64,000 nucleotides of DNA, from NCBI RefSeq assembly GCF_003018255.1, contig NZ_CP027440.1; one strand, written 5' to 3'. This stretch comes from Escherichia coli. Lineage in GTDB: Bacteria; Pseudomonadota; Gammaproteobacteria; Enterobacterales; Enterobacteriaceae. The notes beneath the pieces were generated by a model. It was given only the letters and a program-made list of their open reading frames with translations. It was not told the DNA's origin and did no database searches. A program made the position numbers and the translations under genes. Below, one piece after another: positions 4,149 to 64,000 of this stretch (positions are counted from its first letter, which is position 1; every line of letters starts with the position of its first letter).

Positions 4149-4167
4149 TAAATCATGATCAGGTGTT

Positions 4168-4818: not shown

Positions 4819-4828
4819 GCGGGCCTCC

Positions 4829-5386
<558 letters not shown>

Positions 5387-42780: not shown

Positions 42781-42781
42781 G

Positions 42782-43773: not shown

Positions 43774-44276
43774 TGGTAATCCACCACAATTGTGGCACTG
43801 GCGTTAAATTCCGCTGCCGATAAGGTTGTACCACTCTGTTTCACCGGCACTGCTTCGAGTGCAGGGACGCCCGAGGAAAAATTAAACGGCAACCATGAAC
43901 CAGACGTTAAGTCGAGTGTTGAGTGATCACTACTTTTCTGAACCCGAATACCAAACCCTGAAATACCTGTGCTGATAACTGTTTCACCGTTGATCACAAC
44001 CGTTGTTGCCCGCATCTGTAAACGCAGGTCATCCATTGCCAGGTTGTTACAAACAAGCGAGTAATCAATGGGTTGTTTATAACCTACCCCATCGATCTTA
44101 TTGATGAATACATTACCAAACTCAACCGTCGCACCATTAACCGTGCAAGGAGGAGGGGCATCAACGAGCACTCGTAAACTCAAATTTACTGATTTACTCC
44201 CTGCAACTGCAAAGTCGCTACCAATACAACACATCAGTAACCATGTTCCCGCCCAGACTGAACAAGATCTTTTCAT
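43770..44276 (-). CDS. yfcR: Fimbrial minor subunit YfcR
   Basis: 168-aa ORF; signal peptide. Confidence 0.85.
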   Translation of the reverse strand: MKRSCSVWAGTWLLMCCIGSDFAVAGSKSVNLSLRVLVDAPPPCTVNGATVEFGNVFINKIDGVGYKQPIDYSLVCNNLAMDDLRLQMRATTVVINGETVISTGISGFGIRVQKSSDHSTLDLTSGSWLPFNFSSGVPALEAVPVKQSGTTLSAAEFNASATIVVDYQ

Positions 44277-44292
44277 ACTTACTTCCCCGTCA

Positions 44293-45042
44293 TTAACCTT
44301 TGCGGCTCAGCTCTTCATCAACCTGACAACTGTTGCCGCTACAGGTGAAAAAGAGTGGCATCCGTGCGCCATAGTCGTTGACATAGGTCAGCACCGGCAC
44401 GCTAGCCATCTTCACCTTGAGCGGTGCGGAGGTTTTTGGCGACATCACTATCGGCGAGAAACCGTCTGCCGGATTGCCATTTTTTTGCGCGCTGGCATTA
44501 CTGAAAATGACGTAATACGGAGTAGGGTTATTGACGGTAAATTCCTGACCGTTACGGGTTAAGGTCACTTTATGCTGCCATGGGTTTTGCATGCTAGCTT
44601 TTTCCAGGGCTTTAGGTCGCCAGAAAAGTTTGATGCGTGTCTGCAGCGCAATTTGTAACGTATTGGCTTTGTTCGATTTCGGCGGAATTTCACGCACATT
44701 GAAATAAAATATCGATTCACGATCGGCAGGCAATTTATGGATATCTGGCAATCCCTGAATTTTCACCTGACCATTCATCATTGCATCAATGCGCTGTACG
44801 GGGGGCAATACTGCCAGCGGCGAACTAATCTTGACGCCCTTTTCATCTTCGATCCAGCTTTGTGCCAGATAAGGCTGTTTCGGGTCGTTATTACGCAGCG
44901 TGACGCTGATGGATTTATCGCTTTCATTAAAAATCAGGCGAGTACGATCGGGCGTTACTGACGCCAGAGCAGAAAAACTTACCGTTGCAGCCAGTAACGA
45001 CAGTACCGTTGCCAATGTTTTGACAGAGAGATGTTTAGTCAT
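44293..45042 (-). CDS. yfcS: Periplasmic fimbrial chaperone (PapD-like)
   Basis: 249-aa ORF; signal peptide. Confidence 0.9.
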   Translation of the reverse strand: MTKHLSVKTLATVLSLLAATVSFSALASVTPDRTRLIFNESDKSISVTLRNNDPKQPYLAQSWIEDEKGVKISSPLAVLPPVQRIDAMMNGQVKIQGLPDIHKLPADRESIFYFNVREIPPKSNKANTLQIALQTRIKLFWRPKALEKASMQNPWQHKVTLTRNGQEFTVNNPTPYYVIFSNASAQKNGNPADGFSPIVMSPKTSAPLKVKMASVPVLTYVNDYGARMPLFFTCSGNSCQVDEELSRKG

Positions 45043-45061
45043 GGATCATTCCTTAATCACG

Positions 45062-47701
45062 TTATTGGTTCGATGAAACAGACATCGGCGGTTCCATTGG
45101 TGTCACCTGTTGTGTCTGCTCCTGAATTACAGGTTGAATATCATGCGTTATGACGGGAGCACTTCCCCCTTTTTGCTGGCATGGCAACAACAAGCCATTG
45201 AACAGGTCATTCGGTAACGGATCTGGCAGGCTGATATCGCAGTGAGATTCTCCCTCCCAGAAAACGGTCATATGTTCACCCGGCTTAACGCCTGCAAGAT
45301 AAACATTACCTTCGTCATCAACCAGCCCAACTTGTTGTTGATTATCGTTTTTCACTTCCGCCCCAAATGGCGGATGGCTGCCATCCTGCAAGCGCAGCAC
45401 TACCATCGCCTTCTCACCGCTGATCACCGCAAATTTACGGTAGCCAATAGCGCCTTCCGTCAGCGTTGCCTGGACCACCGATTGGGTAGCTTCGGCGTTT
45501 TCCGGTAGTTTGTTCAAATCGATATAAGCCTGGTTACGGTAGTAATCATTAACATCTGCCACCACCGCTTTCCCGAACATGTTGGTATAAACGGCGGAAC
45601 CATTACCTTCGACCGGCACATTAGCAACGCCATCGGCGTCGATTAGCAGACGTGTGCCTCCCATATTTTGCGTACGATGCAACGCCCCGCCGTGAGCAGT
45701 CAGTGTTACACCGCCCTGTAAGGAGACCCCCGCAGATGTGTATTGCCCCTCATGGTAGTTTGCACTCAGGTCAACTTTTGCCAGCGTACCGTCATGACTG
45801 TAATAACCATCAAGACTGGTGTGATTTTCACTGGTTCCGGCGCTCAACGTATAGTGGCTAGCGTCATCGATGCGGTGATACAAACTCGCCTGGCTGCTGT
45901 CGGCACCACTGCCATAATTGCCGTTGTAACTGATGGTGCTGTTGTCACCCCATGGCAAACTCAAGGACAGATAAACACCTTTGTCGGCACTTTTATCATA
46001 TTCGTAGCGATAACCGGTGAGAGAAACGCTCAGGTTGCGAAGACTTCCTAAATTGAAATAATGAGAAAGCATCATGTTGTAGTTGGTCTGATCCTCGCGA
46101 TCCCAATAGGTATGGTGAGAATAATTGAGATAGACCGAAACGCGCGCATCCCTAAAGTTCTGGTTGTAAGTGACCGTGTACATTTCCTTGTCGTTACCCG
46201 TGCGCGCACGGTCGGTGTCGTTCGCATCCAGATACTCACTCATGGTCATGTAGTTTTTTTCAGAGAAGCGATATCCGGCAAACGTCACCCGACTGTTGAG
46301 TTCATCGAAATCTTTGGCATAGCTGACGCGATAAGAGTTGCCGTCCAGCGTTTTGTTGCCATACACGCTGTTATCGTCGAGTTGAACACGAGAGTGAGTG
46401 ACATCAAACGCTAGCGCTCCGAACAGCGCGAGGTCACGACCGAGGCCTAACGCTGCCGACTGGTAGTTTTCATCGGCCAATGCCCCGCCGTAGAGCGACC
46501 AGCCATTCGCAATCCCCCATGACGCCTCACCGCCCGAGAAGAAGCTGCCTGCAACCTGATGGTCCCAGTTTTGTGGACGCCCCATTGTCACTTTGTAACG
46601 CACCTGACCGGGGCGGGTCAGAAACGGCATGGACGCCGTGCTGACGTCATATTCCTGTACCTGACCGTTTTGTTCTTCAATGCGGACATGCAGCGTGCCA
46701 GATACGGAATCGCCAATATCCTGAATGCGGAATGGACCTGCGGGCACCTGGGTTTCGTAAATGACACGGCCCATTTGGGTTACGGTCACTTTAGCGGTAG
46801 TGTGTGCAACGCCGGAAATATCGGGTGCGTAGCCGCGCATGTTTGGCGGTAACATTTGATCATCGGTACTGATGCTGCCGCCAATGTAACTGAAGCCATC
46901 AAAAATATCGGAGTTGAGATAATCTTCACCCAGCGAAAGTTTGGCTTTTAATGACGGCAAGGCGCGCCAGGCGTAGTAACGGCTCCACTCCCAGTTTTTT
47001 TGCGTACCGCTATCATCAGTGTCGCCGTCATCGTTACTGCGGGTATGTTGGTAATCGCTCTGCCAGTCGGCTCGTAAGCGCCACGGCCCCACGTTAACGC
47101 CGACCGTACCATTACCGCTGATGTCGTTAGTGTCATCCCCCCCATTTTCATGTCGGGTTTGTGCGTTGATACTGTAATCGGCAATAAGCCCAGGAATCCC
47201 CTCATCCCAACGCGAAGGTGGGTCCCAGTCATCGTCAGTGTATTCGAGATATGCCTGTGGCACAGAAACTAAGAGCGCAGATTGACTTAAATCGCCCTTA
47301 ATTTCCATACCTCCTATTTGGTCAGTTTTCAGACATTGTCCATCATGACCCCATTGCAAACTCTTCGCAAAATCATCTTTGAAGCCAAACTGGGCTATCA
47401 GTTCAGGTGGTAAGCAGGCATATGATTTATTCGGATCGTTTTCAGCTACATACCAATAGATATCGTATTCATCAGGTAATGGGTGATTATTTACATGAAC
47501 ACGTAAATTGTATTTCCCTGGTTCAACATACCCTTTTTGAGAAAAACGCCCCAGATCAATTTTGGTATTTCCTTTTAACTCCAGAAATCGAGCATCAAAT
47601 TGAATGGTATCATCTGCCAGTACATTAAAAGGACTCCCGGAAATTGCCAGAGCAATCCACCATGAAAGCCCCCGTAAACGAAGAAAAGAATGTTCAGGCA
47701 T
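45062..47701 (-). CDS. yfcU: Outer-membrane fimbrial usher, intact
   Basis: 879-aa uninterrupted ORF; FimD/PapC-like usher; interrupted in K-12. Confidence 0.9.
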   Translation of the reverse strand: MPEHSFLRLRGLSWWIALAISGSPFNVLADDTIQFDARFLELKGNTKIDLGRFSQKGYVEPGKYNLRVHVNNHPLPDEYDIYWYVAENDPNKSYACLPPELIAQFGFKDDFAKSLQWGHDGQCLKTDQIGGMEIKGDLSQSALLVSVPQAYLEYTDDDWDPPSRWDEGIPGLIADYSINAQTRHENGGDDTNDISGNGTVGVNVGPWRLRADWQSDYQHTRSNDDGDTDDSGTQKNWEWSRYYAWRALPSLKAKLSLGEDYLNSDIFDGFSYIGGSISTDDQMLPPNMRGYAPDISGVAHTTAKVTVTQMGRVIYETQVPAGPFRIQDIGDSVSGTLHVRIEEQNGQVQEYDVSTASMPFLTRPGQVRYKVTMGRPQNWDHQVAGSFFSGGEASWGIANGWSLYGGALADENYQSAALGLGRDLALFGALAFDVTHSRVQLDDNSVYGNKTLDGNSYRVSYAKDFDELNSRVTFAGYRFSEKNYMTMSEYLDANDTDRARTGNDKEMYTVTYNQNFRDARVSVYLNYSHHTYWDREDQTNYNMMLSHYFNLGSLRNLSVSLTGYRYEYDKSADKGVYLSLSLPWGDNSTISYNGNYGSGADSSQASLYHRIDDASHYTLSAGTSENHTSLDGYYSHDGTLAKVDLSANYHEGQYTSAGVSLQGGVTLTAHGGALHRTQNMGGTRLLIDADGVANVPVEGNGSAVYTNMFGKAVVADVNDYYRNQAYIDLNKLPENAEATQSVVQATLTEGAIGYRKFAVISGEKAMVVLRLQDGSHPPFGAEVKNDNQQQVGLVDDEGNVYLAGVKPGEHMTVFWEGESHCDISLPDPLPNDLFNGLLLPCQQKGGSAPVITHDIQPVIQEQTQQVTPMEPPMSVSSNQ

Positions 47702-47786
47702 CTACGTATCCATCCATGATTATTATAATTTAGTTATCTTTTATTTATAAACCCCATAACATTGCAGTTATGGGGGAACAGCATAA

Positions 47787-48353
47787 TTAGAGATATGTAA
47801 TCTGGAACGTCGTTAGCGTTTCAAACGGCGCTGGGGTTGGTGTTACCGCTGCAGTTTCACCTACTAACCAGGCTTTAAAGTTCAACGTTTGTTTCTGTTT
47901 GCCTTTTCCTGTTGAACTGTCCATCGCGATGTCCTGATCGATGCCTGCCCCCAGGTCATAACCAGTACCACGTTGGTCGCCAATCACCAGACTTACATTT
48001 GGAATTTCAGTTCCATTATCCATGTTAGACAGGGAATAGTTTTTTGAGTTGCCGGAGTACGGATTACCAGTGAATGTCGTGGTCATTGTCGTTTCAGTAT
48101 TGAAATTACAATCCTGTAAACGAATCTGGAAATCTTTAGGTGTGGTAGTCTTGCCACCGGTTAAAGAACCTGTACCAATGCTGCCCATATCCACTTCCAG
48201 TTTATGATCGTCAGGAACAATCGAGCACGGAGAGTCTTCAATTGTGCCGTAAAATCTCACTGTACCGTTGTTACCTGCGGCAACGACTGATGCTGAAGTC
48301 AGCGCCCCCATGAGCATTGCCGTGGCAACTGCTGCTTTTACAAACTTACTCAT
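47787..48353 (-). CDS. yfcV: Fimbrial major subunit YfcV
   Basis: 188-aa ORF; signal peptide; C-terminal ..TFQITYL donor-strand motif. Confidence 0.88.
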   Translation of the reverse strand: MSKFVKAAVATAMLMGALTSASVVAAGNNGTVRFYGTIEDSPCSIVPDDHKLEVDMGSIGTGSLTGGKTTTPKDFQIRLQDCNFNTETTMTTTFTGNPYSGNSKNYSLSNMDNGTEIPNVSLVIGDQRGTGYDLGAGIDQDIAMDSSTGKGKQKQTLNFKAWLVGETAAVTPTPAPFETLTTFQITYL

Positions 48354-48960
48354 TATTTGTCCTTAAATCATAAATAATTAGAATATAAGCCAACTGAAAT
48401 ATTGACGCAGAGCTTCTTCAATTTTTACAGCGACTTTTAACCAGCCAATGAACAGATTTTCAGCTCCTGAAAAAACAGGTTCCTTGATATAATATTCTTT
48501 GGCGTGCCGAACATATTGATATTTTAATATGACTGACGCAATTTAGATTTTCTAACATTCAAAGTTAGAAATGCTTAATTAATAGGCAGGAATAATAATT
48601 ACTGAAATTTTTCATCTCAATCATGAAGAATAAGTTCAAAAAAACGGCAAATGCAAAAACCCAGTGAATAAATTAAAGTCAAAAACAATCACATGGCAAT
48701 GACTATCTTGTGATATTAATTTCGCAACGATATAATATTAAAACACTATAATTAATATAAAATCAAGACCCAATTATATTTTTCACTTTAGTCATTATTT
48801 ACCTAAAAATGCTTCCAGAAAAATAATTTATGAATAAAAGTAAATTCTCTTTCAATATGTAAATTTTTACAAATAAAAGCGTCATGCCGTATAAAATAAA
48901 GACCATTCGATCACAAGCGGATCATTGTTAGTACAATAAGATTGAATAAATTCAACATTG
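48354..48960 (-). promoter_or_regulatory. AT-rich upstream regulatory region of the yfc fimbrial operon
   Basis: ~600 bp strongly AT-rich non-coding sequence 5' of yfcV; typical of nucleoid-protein-silenced fimbrial promoters. Confidence 0.5.
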
Positions 48961-48961
48961 C

Positions 48962-49000
48962 CAGAAAAAATAAAGGCCCGATAGCTTACGCCAGCGGGCC
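48962..49000 (-). terminator. Rho-independent terminator downstream of sixA
   Basis: hairpin ggcccg..cgggcc followed on minus strand by tttattttttc. Confidence 0.7.
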
Positions 49001-49013
49001 TTGTGCATGCGTA

Positions 49014-49499
49014 TTAAATCGCCTTTGCCATCTTCAAATTACATGGGCTCATCTGCCAGTTAAATGTGCCGTTTCCGCTTTCATCAAGCGTTACGCTGGC
49101 AATGGCCGAGGTGGTAAACATAGGCGGCGTTTCGCCCGGACATAACTCAGCAACCAGATACCCGACTAAGGGTAAGTGGGAGATCACCAGTACCGAAGCA
49201 ACACCTTCATTGGTCAACGCCTGCAAATAGGCACTGACCAGACCAACATCGCCGCAGGGCGTTAACTCCGGCAGAACTTCTGCACTGGAAGGCAGGTTCA
49301 GACAATCCCCTACTTCTTCAAGTGTTTGCTCGGCTCGCAGGAACGGGCTCACCAGAACGCGTTCGATTTCCACTTTTTGACCTTTCAGCCAGTTCGCCAT
49401 CAGGCGAGATTCGTCACAACCGTTAGTGGTCAGAGGACGAACCGAATCACTGGCGGCATCGAGGGCTGCGTCGCCGTGACGCATGATAAAAACTTGCAT
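49014..49499 (-). CDS. sixA: Phosphohistidine phosphatase SixA
   Basis: 161-aa ORF; MQVFIMRHGDA (RHG motif). Confidence 0.94.
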   Translation of the reverse strand: MQVFIMRHGDAALDAASDSVRPLTTNGCDESRLMANWLKGQKVEIERVLVSPFLRAEQTLEEVGDCLNLPSSAEVLPELTPCGDVGLVSAYLQALTNEGVASVLVISHLPLVGYLVAELCPGETPPMFTTSAIASVTLDESGNGTFNWQMSPCNLKMAKAI

Positions 49500-49701
49500 A
49501 TTGCACCGCTTTTGTTAACCAGATTCGCCCGTTTTCTTTCATCTGAAACCAGAGAAAGAAAACGGTGGCCGGCATTGTGCCTTATCCATTCACCGAATGA
49601 AACGCTGTTTTTTACCTCAATGGCGTAAGTATAGTCAATATGCGTTTACATTTTGAGCAACACTCCGCCATTCAGCGCGGATTCATATAGCTTTGACCTT
49701 C

Positions 49702-51846
49702 TTATTGCAGGTCAGTTGCAGTTGTTTTCCAAAAACTTTCCCCACGCTTGCTCATCTCGACTAAACGCTCGCAAGGGGTAAAACGGGAACCATACTGCGT
49801 GGCCAGTCGTTGCATTATTGCAACCACTTCACCCGCACCGAGAGAATCGATGTAGCGGAACGGACCACCGAGAAATGGCGGAAAACCAATGCCAAATACC
49901 GCGCCAATATCTCCGTCACGCACGCTACGGATAACCTGCTCGTCCAGACAACGTACTGCTTCATTCAGCATCAACATCACACACCGTTCAGCTACCTGCG
50001 GTGCGGAGAGTCGCCCCTGCCCTTGTGTGCCAATGAGCGGGTAAATGGCGGGATCGACCTGTTTTTTGCTTTTACGCCCTTTCTGACCATAAAGATAGAA
50101 ACCCCGGCCATTTTTTCTGCCTTTGCGATCGTCGTTCAAAATTGAAGAAACAACATTTGCAGGCGCGCTAAAACGTTCTCCATAAGCGGCTTCCAGTACA
50201 GGAATAATTTTAGTCCCGGTGTCGATTCCTACCTCATCCAAAAGTTGGATTGGGCCTACCGGAAAACCAAATTTCACCAGCGCGGTATCAATGTGCTCTA
50301 CCCGTTCACCTTCGGTCAACATGCGGATAGCTTCATTAATGTAAGGCGCTAAGATGCGATTGACGTAAAACCCGGCTTTGTCACGCACGACAATTGGCGT
50401 TTTGCCCTGTTTTTTCGCCAGTTTTACTGTGGTGGCGATGGTTTGCGCCGATGTACCGGCATGGGGAATAATTTCTACCAACGGCATTTTTTCCACCGGA
50501 CTGAAGAAATGCAGGCCAATAACTTGCTCAGGTCGCGCGGCGTGAGCGGCGATATCGCCAATCGGTAAAGATGACGTGTTCGAAGCAAAGATGGTATGAG
50601 CGGCGCAATTTTGCTCAACTTCCGCCACCATTTGTTGTTTTAATTCGAGATTTTCAAACACCGCTTCAATAATCAGATCGCGATGGGCAAAGCCGCAATA
50701 GTCCGTCGTTCCGGAGATTAATGCCAGCTGTCTGTCACGTTCGCTGGCTTTGAGATGACGACGGCGAACTTTGCCCTCCAGCTGATCCCAACTGTACTTC
50801 AGCGCATGATTTATGCCCTGCGGGTTGATATCTTTAATTCTGACCGGAAGCCCCGCTTTACAAGCAGTGACATAAGCAATACCGCCGCCCATCAAGCCAC
50901 CACCTAAAATTCCCACGCTGTTTAATGGCGCAGGCGGCGCATCACTGCCAGGATCTTTCTTCACGTCCGTACTGGCAAAAAAGATACTACGCAGCGCCTG
51001 CGATTGCGGCGTCATCACCAGTTCGCCAAAAGCACGGGCTTCAGCGTCATAGCCGCCACTGGTGCCCTGCGCTAATCCCGTTTCGACAACCTCCAGGATG
51101 CGTTCTGTCGCCGGATAGTTACCTTGAGTTTTGTGTTCTGTTTTCTTACCGACCATTTTGAACAGCAGCGCACGACCTAACGGCCCCGCCAGAATACGCT
51201 CGCGTACAGGTAGAGGGCGTGAAGATGGGCGATCCTGCTTTGCCAGCTCAACAGCGGCTTCCAGTAAAATGGATTGCGGAACGACGTCATCCACCAGCCC
51301 CAGCTTTAATGCCTGTTTCGCCCGAAGTTGTTTTCCAGTGAGGATCATCTCCAATGCTGTGCTGACACCTATCAGGCGCGGTAAACGCTGGGTGCCGCCT
51401 GAACCGGGTAATAATCCAAGTTGTACTTCAGGCAAACCGAGCACCGTTTTAGGATCGTCAGTACACATGCGACCGTGGCACGCCAGCGCCAACTCCAGCC
51501 CACCGCCCAGGCAAGCGCCATGAATAGCCGCGATAACCGGAACGGGCAAAGCATGAATCTCCGCCATCAACTGTTGGCCCTGCCGCGCCAGTGCTTCCGC
51601 TTCTTGCGCCGTTTTGCAGTTGGCGATCATGTTGATGTCTGCGCCAGCAATGAAGTTGTCTGGTTTCGCGGAGATAAACACCACGCCGCGCAACTCTTTG
51701 TTTTCACGGAGTTGCTTAATAATGGCGCGCACCTGCGAGGCAAACTCCGCCTTCAGGGTATTCATTTTCTCACCCGGTACGTCGATGGTGATAACAGCAA
51801 TGTTGTCCAGACGGACATTAAGGGTAAACGCTGATGCCATTTCCAT
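49702..51846 (-). CDS. fadJ: Anaerobic fatty-acid oxidation multifunctional enzyme (enoyl-CoA hydratase / 3-hydroxyacyl-CoA dehydrogenase)
   Basis: 714-aa ORF. Confidence 0.95.
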
Positions 51847-53156
51847 TATTCCGCCTCCACAACCATTGCCGCGCCAAGCCCACCCGCAGCACAGGCGGTC
51901 ACTAAACCAAATCCACCGCCGCGACGGCGAAGTTCATGCAATGTCTGGGTAATCATCCGCGCGCCGGTCGCCGCGAAGGGATGCCCGTAAGCAATCGAAC
52001 CGCCAAGCACGTTAAATTTGCTATCGTCCATTTCGCCAGTGGCATGTGCACGCCCCAGTACATCACGAGCAAAACGTTCGCTACCCAGCAACTGAATATT
52101 CGCCAGTGTCTGAGCTGCAAAGGCTTCGTGCATATCGAGCAATGTCAGATCGCTCATTGTCAAACCGGCACGTTCCAGCGCCAGCGGCGTTGACCAGGCC
52201 GGACCGAGCAACATGTCCTGCCAGACATCTATCGCAGTAAATGCGTAACTGCGCAGATACCCCAGCGGTACCAGCCCTAATTCTTTCGCCCGCGATTCGG
52301 TCATCAGGATCACCGCCGCTGCGCCATCGGTCAGCGGCGTACTGTTTGCTGCCGTTACCGTCCCGTGTTTACGATCAAACGCCGGACGCAACTTTGCGTA
52401 ATCAGCAAGCGAGGAATTACCGCGAATATTGTTGTCTTCGGCAAGCGGTTGTTTATAAGGAGGGATAAAGGCAGTCATCACCTCTTCTTTGAGTTTACCG
52501 TCTGACCACGCCTGAGCGGCTCGCTGATGCGAACGGTGCGCTAATGCATCTTGCTGTTCGCGAGTAATACCGTAGGTTTTCGCCATTTGTTCAGCGGTGT
52601 CGCCCATCCGCAAGCCAGTAGAGTATTCCGCCACTGCCGGAGGCACCGGCATTAAGTCGCGCAAACGCAGGCGAGAGAAGAGTTTCAGGCGCTGGCTCAT
52701 GGTTCGAGCTTTGTTGACATCAACCAGCACGCGCGCCAGTTTTTTACTGACGCCAATTGGCAATACGGAAGAGGAATCGGCCCCACCGGCAATCCCCGCG
52801 CGAATAGTTCCCGCCATCAGGCTTTCTGCGACGTTTGCAATCGCCTGGAAACTGGTAGCGCAAGCGCGGCTGACGCTGTAAGCATCGGTATGCACATTCA
52901 TTCCGGTACCGAGAACAATTTCACGCGCAATGTTGGGGGCTTCAGGCATTTGTACGACCTGACCAAAAACCAGTTGTTCAATCACTTCGGCGGGGATCTC
53001 GCTGCGTGCCAGCAGTTCGCCTACCACCATCTTCCCCAAATCAACAGCAGGAATGCCATGAAAAGCCGTCGCCTGGCGGGCAAAAGGCGTACGTAAACCG
53101 CTAACAATGGCGATACGATCGCCCTGGCGGGTAACCAGCGGTAAAACCTGACCCAT
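51846..53156 (-). CDS. fadI: 3-ketoacyl-CoA thiolase (anaerobic)
   Basis: 436-aa ORF; stop overlaps fadJ start. Confidence 0.95.
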
Positions 53157-53183
53157 AACACTCCCCTGTAAAATAATAAATAA

Positions 53184-53200
53184 AGTGGTCTGACCTGATC
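53184..53200. promoter_or_regulatory. Putative FadR operator in fadIJ promoter
   Basis: agtggtctgacctgatc resembles FadR consensus (..TGGTCnGACcTGtt); ~30-45 bp upstream of fadI start. Confidence 0.55.
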
Positions 53201-53336
53201 ATAGTCTTAACCATTTTTTTACATTTAGCCAAGTGGAGAAAAGGGAAAGTGGGAGCTATGACACAGAGAGAAAAGTAGAAGAGAAAAGAAAACGCCCCTG
53301 CCAGCAACTGACAGGGGCGTATGTACCCGAGAGGAA

Positions 53337-53621
53337 TTAACGCAGACCCAGCTGGAAGATCAGCATTTCAGCTTCGCAGGCAAAAGTGAAATCGATATCC
53401 AGGCGCACACCGTCAGACTCTTCAGTGAAAGTCGGGGTGATTTTGCACGGTTCGGATTCCACGCTACGGGCTTTTTCAGTCAGCGCCGCCAGCGTTTGTT
53501 CTGCTTCTGCGCGGTTTGCAAACACACGGCTGTAAGACGCGGTGCAGTCGGAGTTGTCCATAATGGTGCCAACATCCATACAGCAGCAAACCGGGGTTTC
53601 ATCAGCACTACATTTACTCAT
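53337..53621 (-). CDS. yfcZ: Small protein YfcZ (UPF0381)
   Basis: 94 aa from MSKCSADETPVCCC; ORF track starts at an upstream ATG. Confidence 0.85.
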   Translation of the reverse strand: MSKCSADETPVCCCMDVGTIMDNSDCTASYSRVFANRAEAEQTLAALTEKARSVESEPCKITPTFTEESDGVRLDIDFTFACEAEMLIFQLGLR

Positions 53622-53866
53622 CGTTGATTTCCTCTGTATGTGCACCCAAGGTGCCAGATAAACGTTGTGGATATTTTACGCTTCCGGAAAGTGCTGCTCC
53701 AGTTGTTAATTCTGCAAAATCGGATAAGTGACCGAAATCACACTTAAAAATGATCTAAAACAAAATTCACCCGAATCCATGAGTGCGCCACCTCCCAATT
53801 TTGCCAGCTGGATCGCGTTTCTTAGATCATATCTGAAAAAAGATAGAAACATACTTGCAACATTCC

Positions 53867-53907
53867 AGCTGGTCCGACCTATACTCTCGCCACTGGTCTG
53901 ATTTCTA
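53867..53907. promoter_or_regulatory. Two FadR operators in fadL promoter
   Basis: agctggtccgacctata and cactggtctgatttcta, ~85-125 bp upstream of fadL start. Confidence 0.7.
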
Positions 53908-53992
53908 AGATGTACCTCAGACCCTACACTTCGCGCTCCTGTTACAGCACGTAACATAGTTTGTATAAAAATAAATCATTGAGGTTATGGTC

Positions 53993-55333
53993 ATGAGCCA
54001 GAAAACCCTGTTTACAAAGTCTGCTCTCGCAGTCGCAGTGGCACTTATCTCCACCCAGGCCTGGTCGGCAGGCTTTCAGTTAAACGAATTTTCTTCCTCT
54101 GGCCTGGGCCGGGCTTATTCAGGGGAAGGTGCAATTGCCGATGATGCAGGTAACGTTAGCCGTAACCCCGCATTGATTACCATGTTTGACCGCCCGACAT
54201 TTTCTGCGGGTGCGGTTTATATTGATCCGGATGTAAATATCAGCGGAACGTCTCCGTCTGGTCGTAGCCTGAAAGCCGATAACATCGCGCCTACGGCATG
54301 GGTTCCGAACATGCACTTTGTTGCACCGATTAACGACCAATTTGGTTGGGGGGCTTCAATTACCTCTAACTATGGTCTGGCGACAGAGTTTAACGATACT
54401 TATGCAGGCGGTTCTGTCGGTGGTACCACCGACCTCGAAACCATGAACCTGAACTTAAGCGGTGCATATCGCTTAAATAATGCATGGAGCTTTGGTCTTG
54501 GTTTCAACGCCGTCTACGCTCGCGCGAAAATTGAACGTTTCGCAGGCGATCTGGGGCAACTGGTGGCTGGTCAGATTAGGCAATCTCCTGCTTGGCTGAC
54601 TCCTCAGGGGCAAGCATTAGCAGCTACCGCCAACGGCATCGACAGTAATACCAAAATCGCTCACCTGAACGGTAACCAGTGGGGCTTTGGCTGGAACGCC
54701 GGTATCCTGTATGAACTGGATAAAAACAACCGCTACGCATTGACCTACCGCTCTGAAGTGAAAATTGACTTCAAGGGTAACTACAGCAGCGATCTTAACC
54801 CGGCTTTTAATAACTACGGTTTGCCAATTCCTACCGCGACAGGTGGCGCAACGCAGTCGGGTTATCTGACGCTGAACCTGCCTGAAATGTGGGAAGTGTC
54901 GGGTTATAACCGTGTTGATCCGCAGTGGGCAATTCACTATAGCCTGGCTTACACCAGCTGGAGTCAGTTCCAGCAGCTGAAAGCGACCTCAACGAGTGGC
55001 GACACGCTGTTCCAGAAACATGAAGGCTTTAAAGATGCTTACCGCATCGCGTTGGGAACCACTTATTACTACGATGATAACTGGACCTTCCGTACCGGTA
55101 TCGCCTTTGATGACAGCCCAGTTCCGGCACAGAATCGTTCTATCTCCATTCCGGACCAGGACCGTTTCTGGCTGAGTGCAGGTACGACTTACGCATTTAA
55201 TAAAGATGCTTCAGTCGATGTTGGTGTTTCTTATATGCACGGTCAGAGCGTGAAAATTAACGAAGGCCCATACCAGTTCGAGTCTGAAGGTAAAGCCTGG
55301 CTGTTCGGTACTAACTTTAACTACGCGTTCTGA
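53993..55333 (+). CDS. fadL: Long-chain fatty acid outer-membrane transporter
   Basis: 446 aa from [18 protein letters not shown]; C-terminal ..NFNYAF. Confidence 0.95.
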
Positions 55334-55351
55334 TAACGCGTTCGCTTAATA

Positions 55352-55386
55352 AGAAAAAAGGTGAGTTTTGCGACTCACCTTTTTTG
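55352..55386. terminator. Bidirectional rho-independent terminator between fadL and mlaA
   Basis: aaaaaa-ggtgagttttgcgactcacc-tttttt. Confidence 0.85.
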
Positions 55387-55394
55387 TTTGTTTC

Positions 55395-56150
55395 TTATTC
55401 AGAATCGATATCTTTTAAATCATCCTGAATCGCTTGCGCGTTCGGATTTTCCTGCGGTTTGAGTTCGCCGCCATTAGCGATGAAATCATGACGCTGGAAG
55501 TACGCTTCGCGCACCATAATATAAGGATCGGACGACTGACGCAGCAGACCATCGGAATCCAACAACTGCGCACGAGTTTCTATCCCTTCAAGCGTCCATT
55601 TACCCACAGACATCGGCCAGGTCAGCCAGGAAAGAACCGGGTAAAGACCATCCGCCATATCACCACCGTCATCACGCAGCGTGAAGCTACCGTAGAACGG
55701 TAACTGAACGTATGGCCCATAACCCACACCATAATGACCAAGCGTACTACCGAAGCGGTGAGGTTCAGTCCGTTGCAGTTTCGGGTTCGCCATCCCTGCA
55801 ACATCAATAAAGCCGCCCATCCCCAAAATGGTGTTCAGGAAAAAGCGGGTAAAGTGGACCATCCCCTGATAAGGGTCGCCCTGCAAGAAGTAGTTAACCA
55901 TCACCGCAGGTTCTTCAAGGTTGCCAGTAAAGTTGCTCAAACCGTTACGCGCCGGTTGCGGAACATAATCACGCCAGGCGACAGCGACCGGTCGAACAAT
56001 ATACGGGTCTAATACATTGAAATTGAAGTTGTACATGGTGCGGTTGAACCCTTCTAGCGGGTCAGAACGCCCTTGCTGATCTGTACCGGAACTCGCACAC
56101 CCCACCAGAAGCGTAGTTCCCAGAGCAAGCGCCGACAGGCGAAGCTTCAT
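55395..56150 (-). CDS. mlaA: Outer-membrane lipoprotein MlaA (VacJ)
   Basis: 251-aa ORF; lipobox LLVGCASS. Confidence 0.93.
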   Translation of the reverse strand: MKLRLSALALGTTLLVGCASSGTDQQGRSDPLEGFNRTMYNFNFNVLDPYIVRPVAVAWRDYVPQPARNGLSNFTGNLEEPAVMVNYFLQGDPYQGMVHFTRFFLNTILGMGGFIDVAGMANPKLQRTEPHRFGSTLGHYGVGYGPYVQLPFYGSFTLRDDGGDMADGLYPVLSWLTWPMSVGKWTLEGIETRAQLLDSDGLLRQSSDPYIMVREAYFQRHDFIANGGELKPQENPNAQAIQDDLKDIDSE

Positions 56151-56443
56151 AAATGTCTCCCTGTTTTTTTATGGCTTATGCAGTTTGCCATCCATGACGG
56201 AACGATACCGTATCCGCCTGTTTAGGTGTGGGCGATTGTAACAGCACGTCAACTGATGTCCAGACGCCCTGATTTGCTGATTTGATCATAGCCTGGTAAT
56301 CGCCGCCCTGTAGGCTACTTGATTCTATAGAAACAGAAAAAGGCAAACGCAGCCTTTTCTACATTTTCAGAGTAACTCCCGCCAGTTGCGAGCAAAAAAG
56401 CCGCTACGCTTTAGCTATACGTGCTAATTCAAGAGAAGAGACC

Positions 56444-57376
56444 ATGGACAACGACAAAATTGATCAACACAGCGACGAAATTGAAGTTGAGAGCGAAGAA
56501 AAAGAGCGCGGCAAAACAATAGAAATAGATGAAGATCGACTCCCCTCCCGGGCGATGGCAATTCATGAGCATATCCGCCAGGATGGTGAAAAAGAGCTGG
56601 AACGCGACGCAATGGCACTACTGTGGTCAGCCATTGCGGCGGGTCTGTCGATGGGCGCTTCGCTACTGGCAAAAGGGATATTTCATGTCGAACTGGAAGG
56701 CGTGCCGGGCAGCTTCTTGCTGGAGAATCTCGGTTATACCTTTGGTTTTATTATCGTCATTATGGCCCGCCAGCAATTATTTACCGAAAACACCGTGACT
56801 GCGGTACTACCCGTCATGCAAAAACCGACAATGAGCAACGTTGGCTTACTTATGCGGTTATGGGGCGTCGTGCTGCTGGGTAATATTCTCGGGACAGGTA
56901 TTGCGGCGTGGGCATTTGAATATATGCCAATCTTCAATGAAGAAACTCGCGATGCATTTGTCAAAATCGGCATGGATGTGATGAAGAACACCCCCAGCGA
57001 GATGTTTGCCAACGCGATCATTTCCGGCTGGCTGATCGCCACTATGGTTTGGATGTTTCCTGCAGCGGGTGCGGCAAAGATTGTGGTGATTATATTGATG
57101 ACCTGGCTTATTGCCCTGGGTGACACCACTCACATCGTTGTCGGTTCTGTTGAAATCCTCTATCTGGTGTTTAACGGTACGCTGCACTGGAGCGATTTCA
57201 TCTGGCCCTTCGCACTACCTACTTTAGCGGGGAACATCTGCGGCGGCACCTTTATCTTCGCGTTAATGAGTCATGCACAGATCCGTAACGACATGAGCAA
57301 CAAGCGCAAAGCAGAAGCACGCCAAAAAGCAGAACGTGCGGAAAACATTAAGAAAAATGATAAAAACCCGGCATAA
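56444..57376 (+). CDS. yfdC: Formate/nitrite transporter-family inner membrane protein YfdC
   Basis: 310-aa ORF; synteny immediately upstream of argW. Confidence 0.88.
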   Translation: MDNDKIDQHSDEIEVESEEKERGKTIEIDEDRLPSRAMAIHEHIRQDGEKELERDAMALLWSAIAAGLSMGASLLAKGIFHVELEGVPGSFLLENLGYTFGFIIVIMARQQLFTENTVTAVLPVMQKPTMSNVGLLMRLWGVVLLGNILGTGIAAWAFEYMPIFNEETRDAFVKIGMDVMKNTPSEMFANAIISGWLIATMVWMFPAAGAAKIVVIILMTWLIALGDTTHIVVGSVEILYLVFNGTLHWSDFIWPFALPTLAGNICGGTFIFALMSHAQIRNDMSNKRKAEARQKAERAENIKKNDKNPA

Positions 57377-57451
57377 ATGGCGAGGGTTTAAGCAATCGAG
57401 CGGCAGCGTACTTACCCCGCAGTCCATTAGCGGGTATACTCATGCCGCATT

Positions 57452-57526
57452 GTCCTCTTAGTTAAATGGATATAACGAGCCCCTCCTAAGGGCTAATTGC
57501 AGGTTCGATTCCTGCAGGGGACACCA
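57452..57526 (+). tRNA. argW: tRNA-Arg (anticodon CCU)
   Basis: 75-nt sequence read directly, matches argW as recalled; anticodon loop cuCCUaa; ends ..ACACCA. Confidence 0.95.
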
Positions 57527-57646
57527 GATACCCTTCAAACCAAATCTACCTTCACCCCGTAAAAGATGGGTTTGGCAGCACACTTGCCCTATATCTACTC
57601 ATTTTTACTGCAACAGGTTGAAATCTCAGCACTGTCAGAAAGCGCT

Positions 57647-57888
57647 GATGACTAAACAGCCCTGGGCCGGGCGATGTAACCATCATACAGAATCCTGATA
57701 GCGAAATATGGCGTGACTCGATACTTCACTCTGCAATGCATTCCTTGATGAATTCGCAGGCCCGTGATACACGGGACACGTGGCTGAATGACGACAATGT
57801 CCTGGAAATCAGCGAACCGCGTATCCGGAGTACATTTGAGCGACTGTACCAGAACATGAATGAGGCGTTTGGATTAGGTGATTATTAG
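57647..57888 (+). other. Orphan reading-frame fragment of unknown origin
   Basis: open frame of ~79 codons ending ..NDDNVLEISEPRIRSTFERLYQNMNEAFGLGDY*; no convincing start or RBS identified. Confidence 0.3.
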
Positions 57889-57967
57889 CAGGGGTAAGCA
57901 TTTTTGTATTATTATTTTCCGGTTGAGGGATATGGAGATATCGACAACAACCGGAAAAAGTTTACGT

Positions 57968-59215
57968 CTATATTGCTGAAGGTACAGGCGTTTCCATAAC
58001 TATTTGCTCGCGTTTTTTACTCAGGAAGAAAATGCCAAATAGCAACATCAGGCAGACAATACCCGAAATTGCGAAGAAAACTGTCTGGTAGCCTGCGTGG
58101 TCAAAGAGTATCCCAGTCGGCGTTGAAAGCAGCACAATCCCAAGCGAACTGGCAATTTGAAAACCAATCAGAAAGATCGTCGACGACAGGCGCTTATCAA
58201 AGTTTGCCACGCTGTATTTGAAGACGGATATGACACAAAGTGGAACCTCAATGGCATGTAACAGCTTCACTAATGAAATAATCCAGGGGTTAACGAACAG
58301 CGCGCAGGAAAGGATACGCAACGCCATAATCACAACACCGATAAGTAATGCATTTTTTGGCCCTACCCGATTCACAAAGAAAGGAATAATCGCCATGCAC
58401 AGCGCTTCGAGTACCACCTGGAATGAGTTGAGATAACCATACAGGCGCGTTCCTACATCGTGTGATTCGAATAAACCTGCATAAAAGACAGGAAAGAGTT
58501 GTTGATCAAAAATGTTATAGAAAGACCACGTCCCCACAATAAATATGACAAAAACCCAGAAGTTTCGATCCTTGAAAACTGCGATAAAATCCTCTTTTTT
58601 TACCCCTCCCGCATCCGCCGCTATGCACTGGTGATCCTTATCTTTAAAACGCATGTTGATCATCATAAATACAGCGCCAAATAGCGAGACCAACCAGAAG
58701 TTGATATGGGGACTGATACTAAAAAATATACCAGCAAAGAACGCGCCAATAGCATAGCCAAAAGATCCCCAGGCGCGCGCTGTTCCATATTCGAAATGAA
58801 AATTTCGCGCCATTTTTTCGGTGAAGCTGTCAAGCAAACCGCATCCCGCCAGATACCCCAGGCCAAAAAAGAGCGCCCCCAGAATTAGACCTACAGAAAA
58901 ATTGCTTTGCAGTAACGGTTCATAAACGTAAATCATAAACGGTCCGGTCAAGACCAGAATGAAACTCATACACCAGATGAGCGGTTTCTTCAGACCGAGT
59001 TTATCCTGAACGATGCCGTAGAACATCATAAATAGAATGCTGGTAAACTGGTTGACCGAATAAAGTGTACCTAATTCCGTCCCTGTTAATCCTAGATGTC
59101 CTTTCAGCCAAATAGCGTATAACGACCACCACAGCGACCAGGAAATAAAAAAGAGAAATGAGTAACTGGATGCAAAACGATAGTACGCATTTCTGAATGG
59201 AATATTCAGTGCCAT
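57968..59215 (-). CDS. cscB: Sucrose:H+ symporter (MFS)
   Basis: 415-aa ORF; MALNIPFRNAYYRFASSYSFLFF.. recognised as CscB. Confidence 0.93.
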   Translation of the reverse strand: MALNIPFRNAYYRFASSYSFLFFISWSLWWSLYAIWLKGHLGLTGTELGTLYSVNQFTSILFMMFYGIVQDKLGLKKPLIWCMSFILVLTGPFMIYVYEPLLQSNFSVGLILGALFFGLGYLAGCGLLDSFTEKMARNFHFEYGTARAWGSFGYAIGAFFAGIFFSISPHINFWLVSLFGAVFMMINMRFKDKDHQCIAADAGGVKKEDFIAVFKDRNFWVFVIFIVGTWSFYNIFDQQLFPVFYAGLFESHDVGTRLYGYLNSFQVVLEALCMAIIPFFVNRVGPKNALLIGVVIMALRILSCALFVNPWIISLVKLLHAIEVPLCVISVFKYSVANFDKRLSSTIFLIGFQIASSLGIVLLSTPTGILFDHAGYQTVFFAISGIVCLMLLFGIFFLSKKREQIVMETPVPSAI

Positions 59216-59286
59216 AATTACCTGCCTGTCGTTAAAAAATTCATGTCCTATTTAGAGATAAGAGCGGCCTCGCCGTTTACTTCTCA

Positions 59287-60201
59287 CTATTCCAGTTCTT
59301 GTCGACATGGCAGCGCTGTCATCGCCCCTTTCGCCGTTACTGCAAGCGCTCCGCAACGTTGAGCGAGATCGATAATTCGTCGCATTTCTCTTTCATCTGT
59401 AGATAATCCCGTAGAGGACAGACCTGTGAGTAACCCGGCAACGAACGCATCTCCCGCCCCCGTGCTATCGACACAATTCACAGACATTCCAGCAAAATGG
59501 TGAACTTGTCCTCGATAACAGACCACCACCCCTTCTGCACCTTTAGTCACCAACAGCATGGCGATCTCATACTCTTTTGCCAGGGCGCATATATCCCAAT
59601 CGTTCTGTGTTTTTCCACTGATAAGTCGCCATTCTTCTTCCGAGAGCTTGACGACATCCGCCAGTTGTAGCGCCTGCCGCAAACACAAGCGGAGCAAATG
59701 CTCGTCTTGCCATAGATCTTCACGAATATTGGGATCGAAGCTGACAAAACCTCCGGCATGCCGGATCGCCGTCATCGCAGTAAATGCGCTGGTACGCGAA
59801 GGCTCGGCAGACAACGCAATTGAACAGAGATGTAACCATTCGCCATGTCGCCAGCAGGGCAAGTCTGTCGTCTCTAAAAAAAGATCGGCACTGGGGCGGA
59901 CCATAAACGTAAATGAACGTTCTCCTTGATCGTTCAGATCGACAAGCACCGTGGATGTCCGGTGCCATTCATCTTGCTTCAGATACGTGATATCGACACC
60001 CTCAGTTAGCAGCGTTCTTTGCATTAACGCACCAAAAGGATCATCACCGACCCGACCTATAAACCCACTTGTTCCGCCTAATCTGGCGATTCCCACCGCA
60101 ACGTTAGCTGGCGCGCCGCCAGGACAAGGTAGTAGCCGCCCGTCTGATTCTGGCAAGAGATCTACGACCGCATCCCCTAAAACCCATACTTTGGCTGACA
60201 T
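59287..60201 (-). CDS. cscK: Fructokinase (PfkB family)
   Basis: 304-aa ORF; ribokinase-family motifs (..DSTGAGDAF..). Confidence 0.9.
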   Translation of the reverse strand: MSAKVWVLGDAVVDLLPESDGRLLPCPGGAPANVAVGIARLGGTSGFIGRVGDDPFGALMQRTLLTEGVDITYLKQDEWHRTSTVLVDLNDQGERSFTFMVRPSADLFLETTDLPCWRHGEWLHLCSIALSAEPSRTSAFTAMTAIRHAGGFVSFDPNIREDLWQDEHLLRLCLRQALQLADVVKLSEEEWRLISGKTQNDWDICALAKEYEIAMLLVTKGAEGVVVCYRGQVHHFAGMSVNCVDSTGAGDAFVAGLLTGLSSTGLSTDEREMRRIIDLAQRCGALAVTAKGAMTALPCRQELE

Positions 60202-60306
60202 TTTTTTCCCTTAAATTCATCTGACTTACGCATAGTGATAAACCTCTTTTTCGCAAAATCGTCATGGATTTACTAAAACATGCATATTCGATCACAAAAC
60301 GTCATA

Positions 60307-60318
60307 GTTAACGTTAAC
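60307..60318. promoter_or_regulatory. Putative CscR operator 1 (perfect 12-bp palindrome)
   Basis: gttaacgttaac in the cscK-cscA divergent intergenic region. Confidence 0.5.
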
Positions 60319-60370
60319 ATTTGTGATATTCATCGCATTTATGAAAGTAAGGGACTTTATTTTTATAAAA

Positions 60371-60382
60371 GTTAACGTTAAC
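60371..60382. promoter_or_regulatory. Putative CscR operator 2 (same 12-bp palindrome)
   Basis: second exact copy of gttaacgttaac, 64 bp from the first, ~35 bp upstream of cscA start. Confidence 0.5.
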
Positions 60383-60416
60383 AATTCACCCAATTTGCTT
60401 AACCAGGATGATAAAA

Positions 60417-61850
60417 ATGACGCAATCTCGATTACATGCGGCGCAAAACGCACTAGCAAAACTTCACGAGCGCCGAGGTAACACTTTCTATCCCCATTTT
60501 CACCTCGCGCCTCCCGCCGGGTGGATGAACGATCCAAACGGCCTAATCTGGTTTAACGATCGTTATCACGCGTTTTATCAACATCACCCGATGAGCGAAC
60601 ACTGGGGGCCAATGCACTGGGGACATGCCACCAGCGACGATATGATCCACTGGCAGCATGAGCCTATTGCGCTAGCGCCAGGAGACGAGAATGACAAAGA
60701 CGGGTGTTTTTCAGGTAGTGCTGTCGATGACAATGGTGTCCTCTCACTTATCTACACCGGACACGTCTGGCTCGATGGTGCAGGTAATGACGATGCAATT
60801 CGCGAAGTACAATGTCTGGCTACCAGTCGGGATGGTATTCATTTCGAGAAACAGGGTGTGATCCTCACTCCACCAGAAGGCATCATGCACTTCCGCGATC
60901 CTAAAGTGTGGCGTGAAGCCGACACATGGTGGATGGTAGTCGGGGCGAAAGATCCAGGCAACACGGGGCAGATCCTGCTTTATCGCGGCAGTTCATTGCG
61001 TGAATGGACTTTCGATCGCGTACTGGCCCACGCTGATGCGGGTGAAAGCTATATGTGGGAATGTCCGGACTTTTTCAGCCTTGGCGATCAGCATTATCTG
61101 ATGTTTTCCCCGCAGGGAATGAATGCCGAGGGATACAGTTACCGAAATCGCTTTCAAAGTGGCGTAATACCCGGAATGTGGTCGCCAGGACGACTTTTTG
61201 CACAATCCGGGCATTTTACTGAACTTGATAGCGGGCATGACTTTTATGCACCACAAAGCTTTTTAGCGAAGGATGGTCGGCGTATTGTTATCGGCTGGAT
61301 GGATATGTGGGAATCGCCAATGCCCTCAAAACGTGAAGGCTGGGCAGGCTGCATGACGCTGGCGCGCGAGCTATCAGAGAGCAATGGCAAACTTCTACAA
61401 CGCCCGGTACACGAAGCTGAGTCGTTACGCCAGCAGCATCAATCTATCTCTCCCCGCACAATCAGCAATAAATATGTTTTGCAGGAAAACGCGCAAGCAG
61501 TTGAGATTCAGCTGCAGTGGGCGTTGAAGAACAGTGATGCCGAACATTACGGATTACAGCTCGGCACTGGAATGCGGCTGTATATTGATAACCAATCTGA
61601 GCGACTTGTTTTGTGGCGGTATTACCCACACGAGAATTTAGATGGCTACCGTAGTATTCCCCTCCCGCAGGGTGACATGCTCGCCCTAAGGATATTTATC
61701 GATACATCATCCGTGGAAGTATTTATTAACGACGGGGAGGCGGTGATGAGTAGCCGAATATATCCGCAGCCAGAAGAACGGGAACTGTCGCTCTATGCCT
61801 CCCACGGAGTGGCTGTGCTGCAACATGGAGCACTCTGGCAACTGGGTTAA
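60417..61850 (+). CDS. cscA: Sucrose-6-phosphate hydrolase / invertase (GH32)
   Basis: 477 aa from MTQSRLHAAQN..; GH32 N-terminal motif WMNDPNG. Confidence 0.93.
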   Translation: MTQSRLHAAQNALAKLHERRGNTFYPHFHLAPPAGWMNDPNGLIWFNDRYHAFYQHHPMSEHWGPMHWGHATSDDMIHWQHEPIALAPGDENDKDGCFSGSAVDDNGVLSLIYTGHVWLDGAGNDDAIREVQCLATSRDGIHFEKQGVILTPPEGIMHFRDPKVWREADTWWMVVGAKDPGNTGQILLYRGSSLREWTFDRVLAHADAGESYMWECPDFFSLGDQHYLMFSPQGMNAEGYSYRNRFQSGVIPGMWSPGRLFAQSGHFTELDSGHDFYAPQSFLAKDGRRIVIGWMDMWESPMPSKREGWAGCMTLARELSESNGKLLQRPVHEAESLRQQHQSISPRTISNKYVLQENAQAVEIQLQWALKNSDAEHYGLQLGTGMRLYIDNQSERLVLWRYYPHENLDGYRSIPLPQGDMLALRIFIDTSSVEVFINDGEAVMSSRIYPQPEERELSLYASHGVAVLQHGALWQLG

Positions 61851-61857
61851 CATAATA

Positions 61858-62853
61858 TCAGGTGGAACAACGGATCAACAGCGGGCAAGGGATCCGCGTC
61901 ACTCTTCCCCCTTCACGATCTTCAATAATATGCAATGCAGCTTCCCGCCCGATAATGTCATGTGGAAGCTGAATTGTGGTCAGCGGCGGTAAAAACAGAT
62001 GCCCGACGCCAACCAGATTATCAAAGCCCATTACGGCGACATCCTGCGGGATACGTACCCCCTTCGCCAGGAGAACCTGATAAGCGACAAAGGCTGCGCG
62101 ATCGTTACCACATATCAGAACATCAAAATCTGGTTTGCCCGATTTGAAGTGGTCATTGAGTAAACTTGCGAGATCGGTGTAGTGATCATCACCTGTTGCC
62201 ATGTGAAATTGTTTCACCTCAGCCAGATCTCGTCCAGCATCACGCCAGGCCTGCTCAAATCCCTGCCGACGATACCCTGTTGCCAACGCACTTTCCGGTA
62301 GCCAGAAGCATAACGGTTGACGATAGCCCGCCGCGAGCAAATGCTGTGTTGATTCATATTGTGCAGTGTAATCATCAGGGATATAACTGGGTAACGCTGG
62401 GTCATCCGCCACACAGTTCGCCAATACAATATTTTCACCATACAGAGACTCAGGCAGCGAGATATGTCGCAGCCCCATTGTAGTATAGATAATGCCATCC
62501 GGACGGTGGGCAAGCAGCTGACGTGCCGCGCGGGCAGCGTCATCTTCAGAAAAAATATTGATTAAAAAACTATTCCAGCCAAACTCGCTGGCGGTTTGCT
62601 CAATGGCAAGCAGAATATCAACAGAGAAAGGAGTGGTGGCCGTGTCCTGCGCCAGCACGGCGAGAGTCGACGGCTTACGTCCTTGAGCGCGCATCTTACG
62701 GGCGGAAAGATCAGGAACATAATTCAGGGTCTGGATTGCCTGCAATACGCGGTCACGCGTTGCAGGACGCACAGATTCTGCATTATGCATCACCCGGGAG
62801 ACTGTCATCATCGACACTCCCGCCAGGCGTGCGACATCCTTTAATGAAGCCAT
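61858..62853 (-). CDS. cscR: LacI-family sucrose operon repressor
   Basis: 332 aa from MASLKDVARLAGVSMMTVSRV (HTH); ORF track over-extended upstream to 63051. Confidence 0.9.
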   Translation of the reverse strand: MASLKDVARLAGVSMMTVSRVMHNAESVRPATRDRVLQAIQTLNYVPDLSARKMRAQGRKPSTLAVLAQDTATTPFSVDILLAIEQTASEFGWNSFLINIFSEDDAARAARQLLAHRPDGIIYTTMGLRHISLPESLYGENIVLANCVADDPALPSYIPDDYTAQYESTQHLLAAGYRQPLCFWLPESALATGYRRQGFEQAWRDAGRDLAEVKQFHMATGDDHYTDLASLLNDHFKSGKPDFDVLICGNDRAAFVAYQVLLAKGVRIPQDVAVMGFDNLVGVGHLFLPPLTTIQLPHDIIGREAALHIIEDREGGRVTRIPCPLLIRCST

Positions 62854-63095
62854 ACCCAAGCCGTTTGCCGTAAAACGGGCACTGTAGCAGAAACAGACGT
62901 CACTGGCGAGATCCAACGATATTCTCAACGCCCTATCACCCGACACGGCAATACAATAAAAAATAACAATAATTCCCGGACAATTGTACCCAATTCCGCC
63001 TCTGTTCTCGCCAACGAGTAACCATGTAGGCAAGTAGGTAAAACATGCCAACTGGCATCGCCAACCTGGAGAAGAAAATATAAATATGGATCATT

Positions 63096-63314
63096 GTGCT
63101 GCCGCTGTATCCCGACATCAGTCCGGAAATTATTGCGATTGCTATCGGTTCAGGTGCGATTGGCTGCACGATCGTTACGGACTCGCTTTTCTGGCTGGTG
63201 AAGCAATATTGCGGCGCTACGCTCAATGAAACATTTAAATACTATACGACAGCGACATTTATCGCTTCAGTCGTCGCTCTGGCGGGCACATTCCTGCTGT
63301 CATTTATCATCTAA
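63096..63314 (+). pseudogene. dsdX: 3' remnant of D-serine transporter gene dsdX (last ~72 codons)
   Basis: translation ..[71 protein letters not shown] matches DsdX C-terminus; no N-terminal part upstream. Confidence 0.85.
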
Positions 63315-63331
63315 GCGCAAAGAGACGTACT

Positions 63332-64000
63332 ATGGAAAACGCTAAAATGAACTCGCTCATCGCCCAGTATCCGTTGGTAAAGGATCTGGTTGCTCTTAAA
63401 GAAACCACCTGGTTTAATCCTGGCACGACCTCATTGGCTGAAGGTTTACCTTATGTTGGCCTGACCGAACAGGATGTTCAGGACGCCCATGCGCGCTTAT
63501 CCCGTTTTGCACCCTATCTGGCAAAAGCATTTCCTGAAACTGCTGCTACTGGGGGGATTATTGAATCAGAACTGGTTGCCATTCCGGCTATGCAAAAACG
63601 GCTGGAAAAGGAATATCAACAACCGATCAGCGGGCAACTGCTACTGAAAAAAGATAGCCATTTGCCCATTTCCGGCTCCATAAAAGCACGCGGCGGGATT
63701 TATGAAGTCCTGGCACATGCAGAAAAACTGGCTCTGGAAGCGGGGTTGCTGACGCTTGAAGATGACTACAGCAAACTGCTTTCTCCGGAGTTTAAACAGT
63801 TCTTTAGTCAATACAGCATTGCTGTGGGCTCAACCGGAAATCTGGGGTTATCAATCGGCATTATGAGCGCCCGCATTGGCTTTAAGGTGACAGTACATAT
63901 GTCTGCTGATGCCCGGGCATGGAAAAAAGCGAAACTGCGCAGCCATGGCGTTACGGTCGTGGAATATGAGCAAGATTATGGTGTTGCAGTCGAGGAAGGA
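63332..64000 (+). CDS. dsdA: D-serine dehydratase (5' partial; continues past window end)
   Basis: [31 protein letters not shown]..; PLP-lysine region ..SGSIKARGG. Confidence 0.95.

Follow-up and report, generated by a model that had tools for sequence, protein, structure and literature searches.

Results

The fadL-mlaA junction of the window

In the 64-kb stretch of Escherichia coli DNA analysed here (the whole of which is henceforth referred to as the window), fadL and mlaA lie convergently, tail to tail (stops at 55333 and 55395), across a spacer that, read directly from the sequence, is exactly 61 bp long (Table 1). The predicted fadL product matches the Pfam family Toluene_X (E=1.5e-168) and the mlaA product the MlaA family (E=2.7e-65). 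In near-identical complete genomes the two open reading frames are annotated as fadL and mlaA, and the mlaA product is WP_000776768.1 in the annotation of relatives and of O157:H7. An earlier note on this DNA had claimed that just 61 bp separate the two genes and that yfdF is absent here, and both statements hold: searches of the whole 64-kb window by tblastn with YfdF and by blastn with the K-12 block that carries yfdF gave no significant match. That yfdF is missing through a collapsed or misjoined assembly, or through an error of reading, is exceedingly improbable, since we found no point in favour of such an artefact and 1,128 complete genomes, CFT073 and several near-identical strains among them, have this 61-bp junction, which recurs in other species too.

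Table 1. Coordinates in the window of the genes and features at the fadL-mlaA junction
Feature	Position	Strand	Description
fadL open reading frame	53987..55333	+	448 codons; from the open reading frame list
fadL from the start annotated in relatives	53993..55333	+	446 aa; long-chain fatty acid outer-membrane channel; K-12-type allele
fadL-mlaA spacer	55334..55394		61 bp; colinear with the spacers of other Escherichia species and of B2 E. coli
Unoccupied insertion site	55346..55353		TTAATAAG; replaced elsewhere by the yfdF/icaT block of about 1.55 kb (K-12) or about 1.73 kb (O157:H7)
Candidate bidirectional intrinsic terminator	55354..55385		A6, 7-bp stem GGTGAGT/ACTCACC, 6-nt loop, T6
Hairpin parts	A6 55354-55359; GGTGAGT 55360-55366; loop 55367-55372; ACTCACC 55373-55379; T6 55380-55385		
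mlaA (vacJ)	55395..56150	-	251 aa; outer-membrane phospholipid-transport lipoprotein; from the open reading frame list

A putative terminator shared by the two genes

The spacer reads TAACGCGTTCGCTTAATAAG-AAAAAA-GGTGAGT-TTTGCG-ACTCACC-TTTTTT-GTTTGTTTC, and a terminator consensus scan found one terminator-like site in it, a hairpin that lies between the convergent 3' ends, 20 nt past the fadL stop codon and 9 nt past the mlaA stop codon. This simple scan reported the site on the plus strand only, because it counted the A and T runs as stem; read directly from the sequence, the minus strand carries the 7-bp stem followed by TTTTTTCT. Folding of the spacer gave -19.7 kcal/mol for the plus strand and -17.5 kcal/mol for the minus strand (z about -3.8 and -4.0). 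The 7-bp stem with its four G-C pairs forms the core of this fold, and none of 200 shuffled spacers folded as well. When 42 Enterobacteriaceae spacers were aligned, the 7-bp stem was paired in 100% of cells, with compensatory changes on both sides at four of the seven pairs, and the stem variants GGTGAGT, GGTGAGC, GGGTGAAC, GGTGCGC and GGCGAAC each came with the matching 3' arm. The stem covariation score was 0.204 compared with 0.102 in shuffles (0 of 500 reached the observed score), and pairing fell to 43-67% in a control in which the partners were slid. The A-run and T-run around the stem were nearly invariant in this alignment, and the sequence of the spacer outside the hairpin was not conserved across Enterobacteriaceae. 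The hairpin, judged by its sequence and conservation, is most likely a bidirectional intrinsic terminator common to the two convergent genes: whichever strand is read, a G+C stem precedes a U-tract, and both transcripts would most likely end at the hairpin. This agrees with the description of the spacer in the earlier note as occupied by one bidirectional terminator, with anatomy and conservation observed and termination itself predicted. A permissive Rfam scan for a small RNA in the spacer returned only sub-threshold matches, the highest-scoring plausible one being STnc390, with 19.7 bits where the gathering score is 50; no STnc390-type match at the gathering threshold was found at the orthologous loci of Salmonella, E. 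albertii and Citrobacter, and we treat the match as a chance likeness to the terminator shape.

The K-12 locus and the yfdF block

K-12 MG1655 (NC_000913.3) shares with the window the flanking genes and their order (fadI, yfcZ, fadL, mlaA, yfdC, argW) and the terminator hairpin beside mlaA. It differs in that yfdF (b2345) lies between fadL (b2344) and mlaA (b2346), as the earlier note had stated, and the distance between the latter two is 1605 bp. Aligned by blastn, the window and K-12 are 97.4% identical as far as 55345 and 98.3% identical from 55347 onward, with about 1.55 kb extra in K-12 in between. Base by base, a 1552-bp block of K-12 (3660-5211 of the K-12 locus, L001) replaces the 8 bp TTAATAAG of the window. 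The block is 29-40% GC (about 35% overall) compared with about 50% in the flanks, and brings a hairpin of its own that adjoins the fadL stop, the old hairpin remaining beside mlaA. YfdF of K-12 is 352 aa long, and no Pfam family was found for it. The left and right junctions of the block are identical in K-12 and O157:H7, though the blocks themselves are only 93% identical, which points to a single insertion event. A search of the K-12 block for the signature of a mobile element found no terminal inverted repeats and no convincing target-site duplication; near both ends there were no more than 10-11-mers at chance level and a loose GGATAA motif. Among E. coli the block is 90-100% identical and far more divergent than its flanks (L001 3660-5211 compared with L087 2501-4230), with a length difference of about 185 bp in O157/D-type strains, a divergence in keeping with the way icaT, as yfdF is now called, has been described in print: a decaying 'fossil' gene.

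Under its new name yfdF has been described as a horizontally acquired, low-GC gene inserted beside fadL, with an MxiE box and a product secreted through the type III apparatus of Shigella (PMC9241512). H-NS keeps the gene silent in Shigella as well as in derivatives of E. coli K-12 (PMC9769918), and according to published work it is expressed only when the Shigella activators MxiE/IpgC are present. The MxiE-box pattern GTATCGTTTTTTTANAG, with up to 3 mismatches allowed, had no match in the K-12 locus or the window, and the nearest MxiE-like site found by eye in K-12 (TGAGCGTTTTTTGATAG, L001 3940-3956) has 4 mismatches, so the MxiE box is cited here from the published papers alone. A role of yfdF in phage infection, for which there is a TraDIS hit with one phage (bioRxiv 10.1101/2025.12.01.691526), was set aside, as knockout did not confirm it. 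There is no known consequence for E. coli without yfdF, and nothing is functionally missing.

Distribution of the two arrangements and lineage of the window

The published survey found icaT in the strains of phylogroups A, B1, D and E that it tested, scored IAI39 and SMS-3-5 as icaT-positive (Table S1 of that paper), and found the gene absent from five B2 strains and apparently also from E. marmotae and E. fergusonii (PMC9241512). The presence or absence of yfdF (icaT) is hence an already published polymorphism and an ordinary strain difference. Among 5,426 complete E. coli genomes, the adjacent junction seen in the window is present in 1,128 (21%), and the yfdF block, scored as the K-12 block at 90-100% identity, in 4,299 (79%), the two classes being complementary. 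The arrangement can thus be used as a lineage marker, which is what the earlier note had proposed: presence or absence is easily scored as 61 bp or about 1.6 kb between fadL and mlaA, and separates yfdF/icaT-positive E. coli from lineages that keep the ancestral junction. About 750 of the genomes with an empty site, THO-003 and CFT073 being of this kind, align with the window only from inside fadL, at about 89.5% identity, and the remaining 378 or so have a K-12-type fadL like that of the window.

The fadL of the window has 96-99% nucleotide identity to that of K-12, O157 and the O78:H4 APEC genome but 76% to that of CFT073 and THO-003, and its product is 98.9% identical in amino-acid sequence to K-12 FadL and 77% to the B2 type, the differences and indels of the CFT073/THO-003-type FadL being clustered between residues 80 and 440. 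CFT073 (phylogroup B2, which represents the published icaT-negative state) shares with the window the 61-bp spacer, with one base different, and the lack of yfdF, whereas its fadL is the deeply divergent one and its MlaA is another protein variant. The B2-type alleles of fadL and mlaA that CFT073 carries were not found in the window, which, as far as its sequence tells, is not B2-like and has K-12/O157-type alleles on both sides of the junction. Two deep classes of fadL allele are seen in Escherichia more widely (compared at window 53993-55333, L086 3358-4698 and L088 18266-19606). The window, K-12, O157 and the O78:H4 APEC genome have one type, which at 91-95% is also that of E. albertii, E. 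whittamii, Salmonella and C. amalonaticus; the second, with 77% amino-acid identity and loop-like indels, is that of CFT073 and THO-003 (about 750 genomes) and occurs in cryptic Escherichia clades too. Two such classes are what diversifying selection, or an exchange of alleles, at a phage-receptor porin might produce.

No single complete genome matched the window over its whole length. Segment by segment, the closest to the locus were JNE112863, 200164, DETEC-S792 and the O78:H4 APEC genome E12049 (98.6-100%), and identity to K-12 and O157 was 96-98%, depending on the segment. JNE112863 is 100% identical over 20001-45000 and 99.3% over 36-64 kb, with 2-8% divergence in parts of 48.5-53.5 kb; for strain 200164 the stretch of 100% identity is limited to 54.3-56.4 kb, and DETEC-S792 is 99.8% identical over 50000-57500. 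E12049 has the same fadL, 61 bp, mlaA, yfdC, argW, csc genes and truncated dsdX as the window, with 98.8-99.9% identity across fadL, mlaA, yfdC and csc, but its fadI/fadJ segment is only 97-98.7% identical and it is not the same strain. The phylogroup of the window would be taken solely from its likeness to this genome, whose own phylogroup comes from the serotype literature, in which O78:H4 is reported as ST117, phylogroup G (PMC11067769).

The ancestral junction and a proposed history of the insertion

A search for MlaA in one genome per species of Enterobacteriaceae gave 80 loci, 79 of them with both genes on the locus, and wherever the locus extended far enough, fadL and mlaA converged. 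In 72 of the 79 species representatives the spacer measured 41-76 bp; E. albertii, two cryptic Escherichia clades and K. pneumoniae have spacers of exactly 61 bp. YfdF had no match in any of the 80 loci. Other Enterobacteriaceae (E. albertii, Salmonella, Citrobacter, Klebsiella and Enterobacter) thus share with the window the convergent genes at this short distance and the one hairpin of A-run, stem-loop and T-run, and differ from it in the stem sequence, by compensatory changes, and in the spacer outside the hairpin. E. albertii, E. whittamii and Escherichia sp. MOD1-EC7003 have spacers colinear with that of the window and with the same layout of TTAATAAG, A6 and hairpin; CFT073, whose spacer differs by 1 nt, shows this layout too. 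Since the outgroup spacers are this short and hold no yfdF, the window spacer is colinear with them, the block junctions are identical in K-12 and O157:H7 and the hairpin stem is conserved with compensatory changes, we consider it very probable, from these sequence comparisons, that the window has the ancestral, never-occupied fadL-mlaA junction, that one insertion of about 1.55 kb took place in other lineages, and that the hairpin is a terminator shared by both genes. A single horizontal insertion of the AT-rich block, between the fadL stop and the hairpin, would have occurred in the ancestor of most non-B2 E. coli and brought in yfdF/icaT, a promoter belonging to it and, by the fadL stop, a new hairpin; the lineage of the window, phylogroup B2 and genomes like the O78:H4 APEC one would never have received it.

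Alternatively, yfdF might once have been present in the lineage of the window and have disappeared, through a deletion or through homologous recombination in which a yfdF-negative strain donated an empty-site allele. The locus is mosaic, and the pattern of complete identity to the nearest genomes over 20-45 kb beside 2-8% divergence over 48.5-53.5 kb indicates frequent recombination here; the presence of icaT in IAI39 and SMS-3-5 also makes a single gain awkward. However, the spacer contains exactly the ancestral 8 bp, TTAATAAG, colinear with the outgroups and CFT073, and nothing of the block is left in the window. These 8 bp would not be regenerated by a spontaneous deletion; allele replacement alone could bring them back, and the sequence in the window would then still be the ancestral allele. 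Secondary loss therefore seems to us rather unlikely.

The history of the block in E. coli as a whole is less simple than the ancestral state of the junction. We take IAI39 and SMS-3-5 to belong to phylogroup F, and phylogroup F branches outside B2+G. A single gain is complicated by these two icaT-positive strains, and a block 'inserted once after B2 left' misfits the tree unless homologous recombination also transferred it or B2+G had it replaced; the reason for the complication is likely to be recombination at this visibly mosaic locus. Absence of yfdF/icaT reaches beyond B2, to the 378 or so genomes with K-12-type fadL that include the window and the O78:H4 APEC genome. We give about an even chance to the reading of this absence by which the block arrived in E. 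coli at a later time than proposed, or was carried from one phylogroup to another through homologous recombination in its flanks, with the fadL-mlaA spacer as a repeated landing spot. The published history of icaT is slightly refined by these results, which involve no new mechanism or gene, and the finding matters little on its own.

Unrelated inserts were seen in the fadL-mlaA spacer of two other genera. The spacer is 2377 bp long in Trabulsiella odontotermitis (L043 5754-8136), with an orphan Hcp (T6SS_HCP, E=3.6e-23) and an unknown open reading frame, and 2356 bp in Superficieibacter electus (L069 5754-8115), with a UbiD-family decarboxylase and a MarR regulator. The spacer between these convergent genes seems to be a recurrent landing spot for unrelated inserts.

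Mosaic tract and accessory genes near the junction

The tract 48500-53500 (fadJ, fadI) is mosaic: JNE112863 and 200164, which are 100% identical elsewhere, show up to 42 mismatches per 500 bp in it, and DETEC-S792 is 99.7-99.8% identical within it. The tract looks like a local recombination import. The earlier note had listed an intact yfcU and a csc island as further markers that set this strain apart from K-12, and features of both kinds are present. A yfc-type chaperone-usher fimbrial operon is intact at 41938-48353, with an usher open reading frame of 879 aa at 45062-47701, and shares no more than about 73% identity with its counterpart at this position in CFT073. Past argW (about 57450-63400), as read from the annotation of near-identical genomes, there is a short DUF4942 fragment, then the csc sucrose genes (an MFS transporter, a kinase, cscA and a LacI-type regulator) and an N-terminally truncated dsdX beside dsdA; in their place K-12 carries prophage CPS-53 at argW, and upaE/ipuAB and an intact dsdCXA are found in CFT073.
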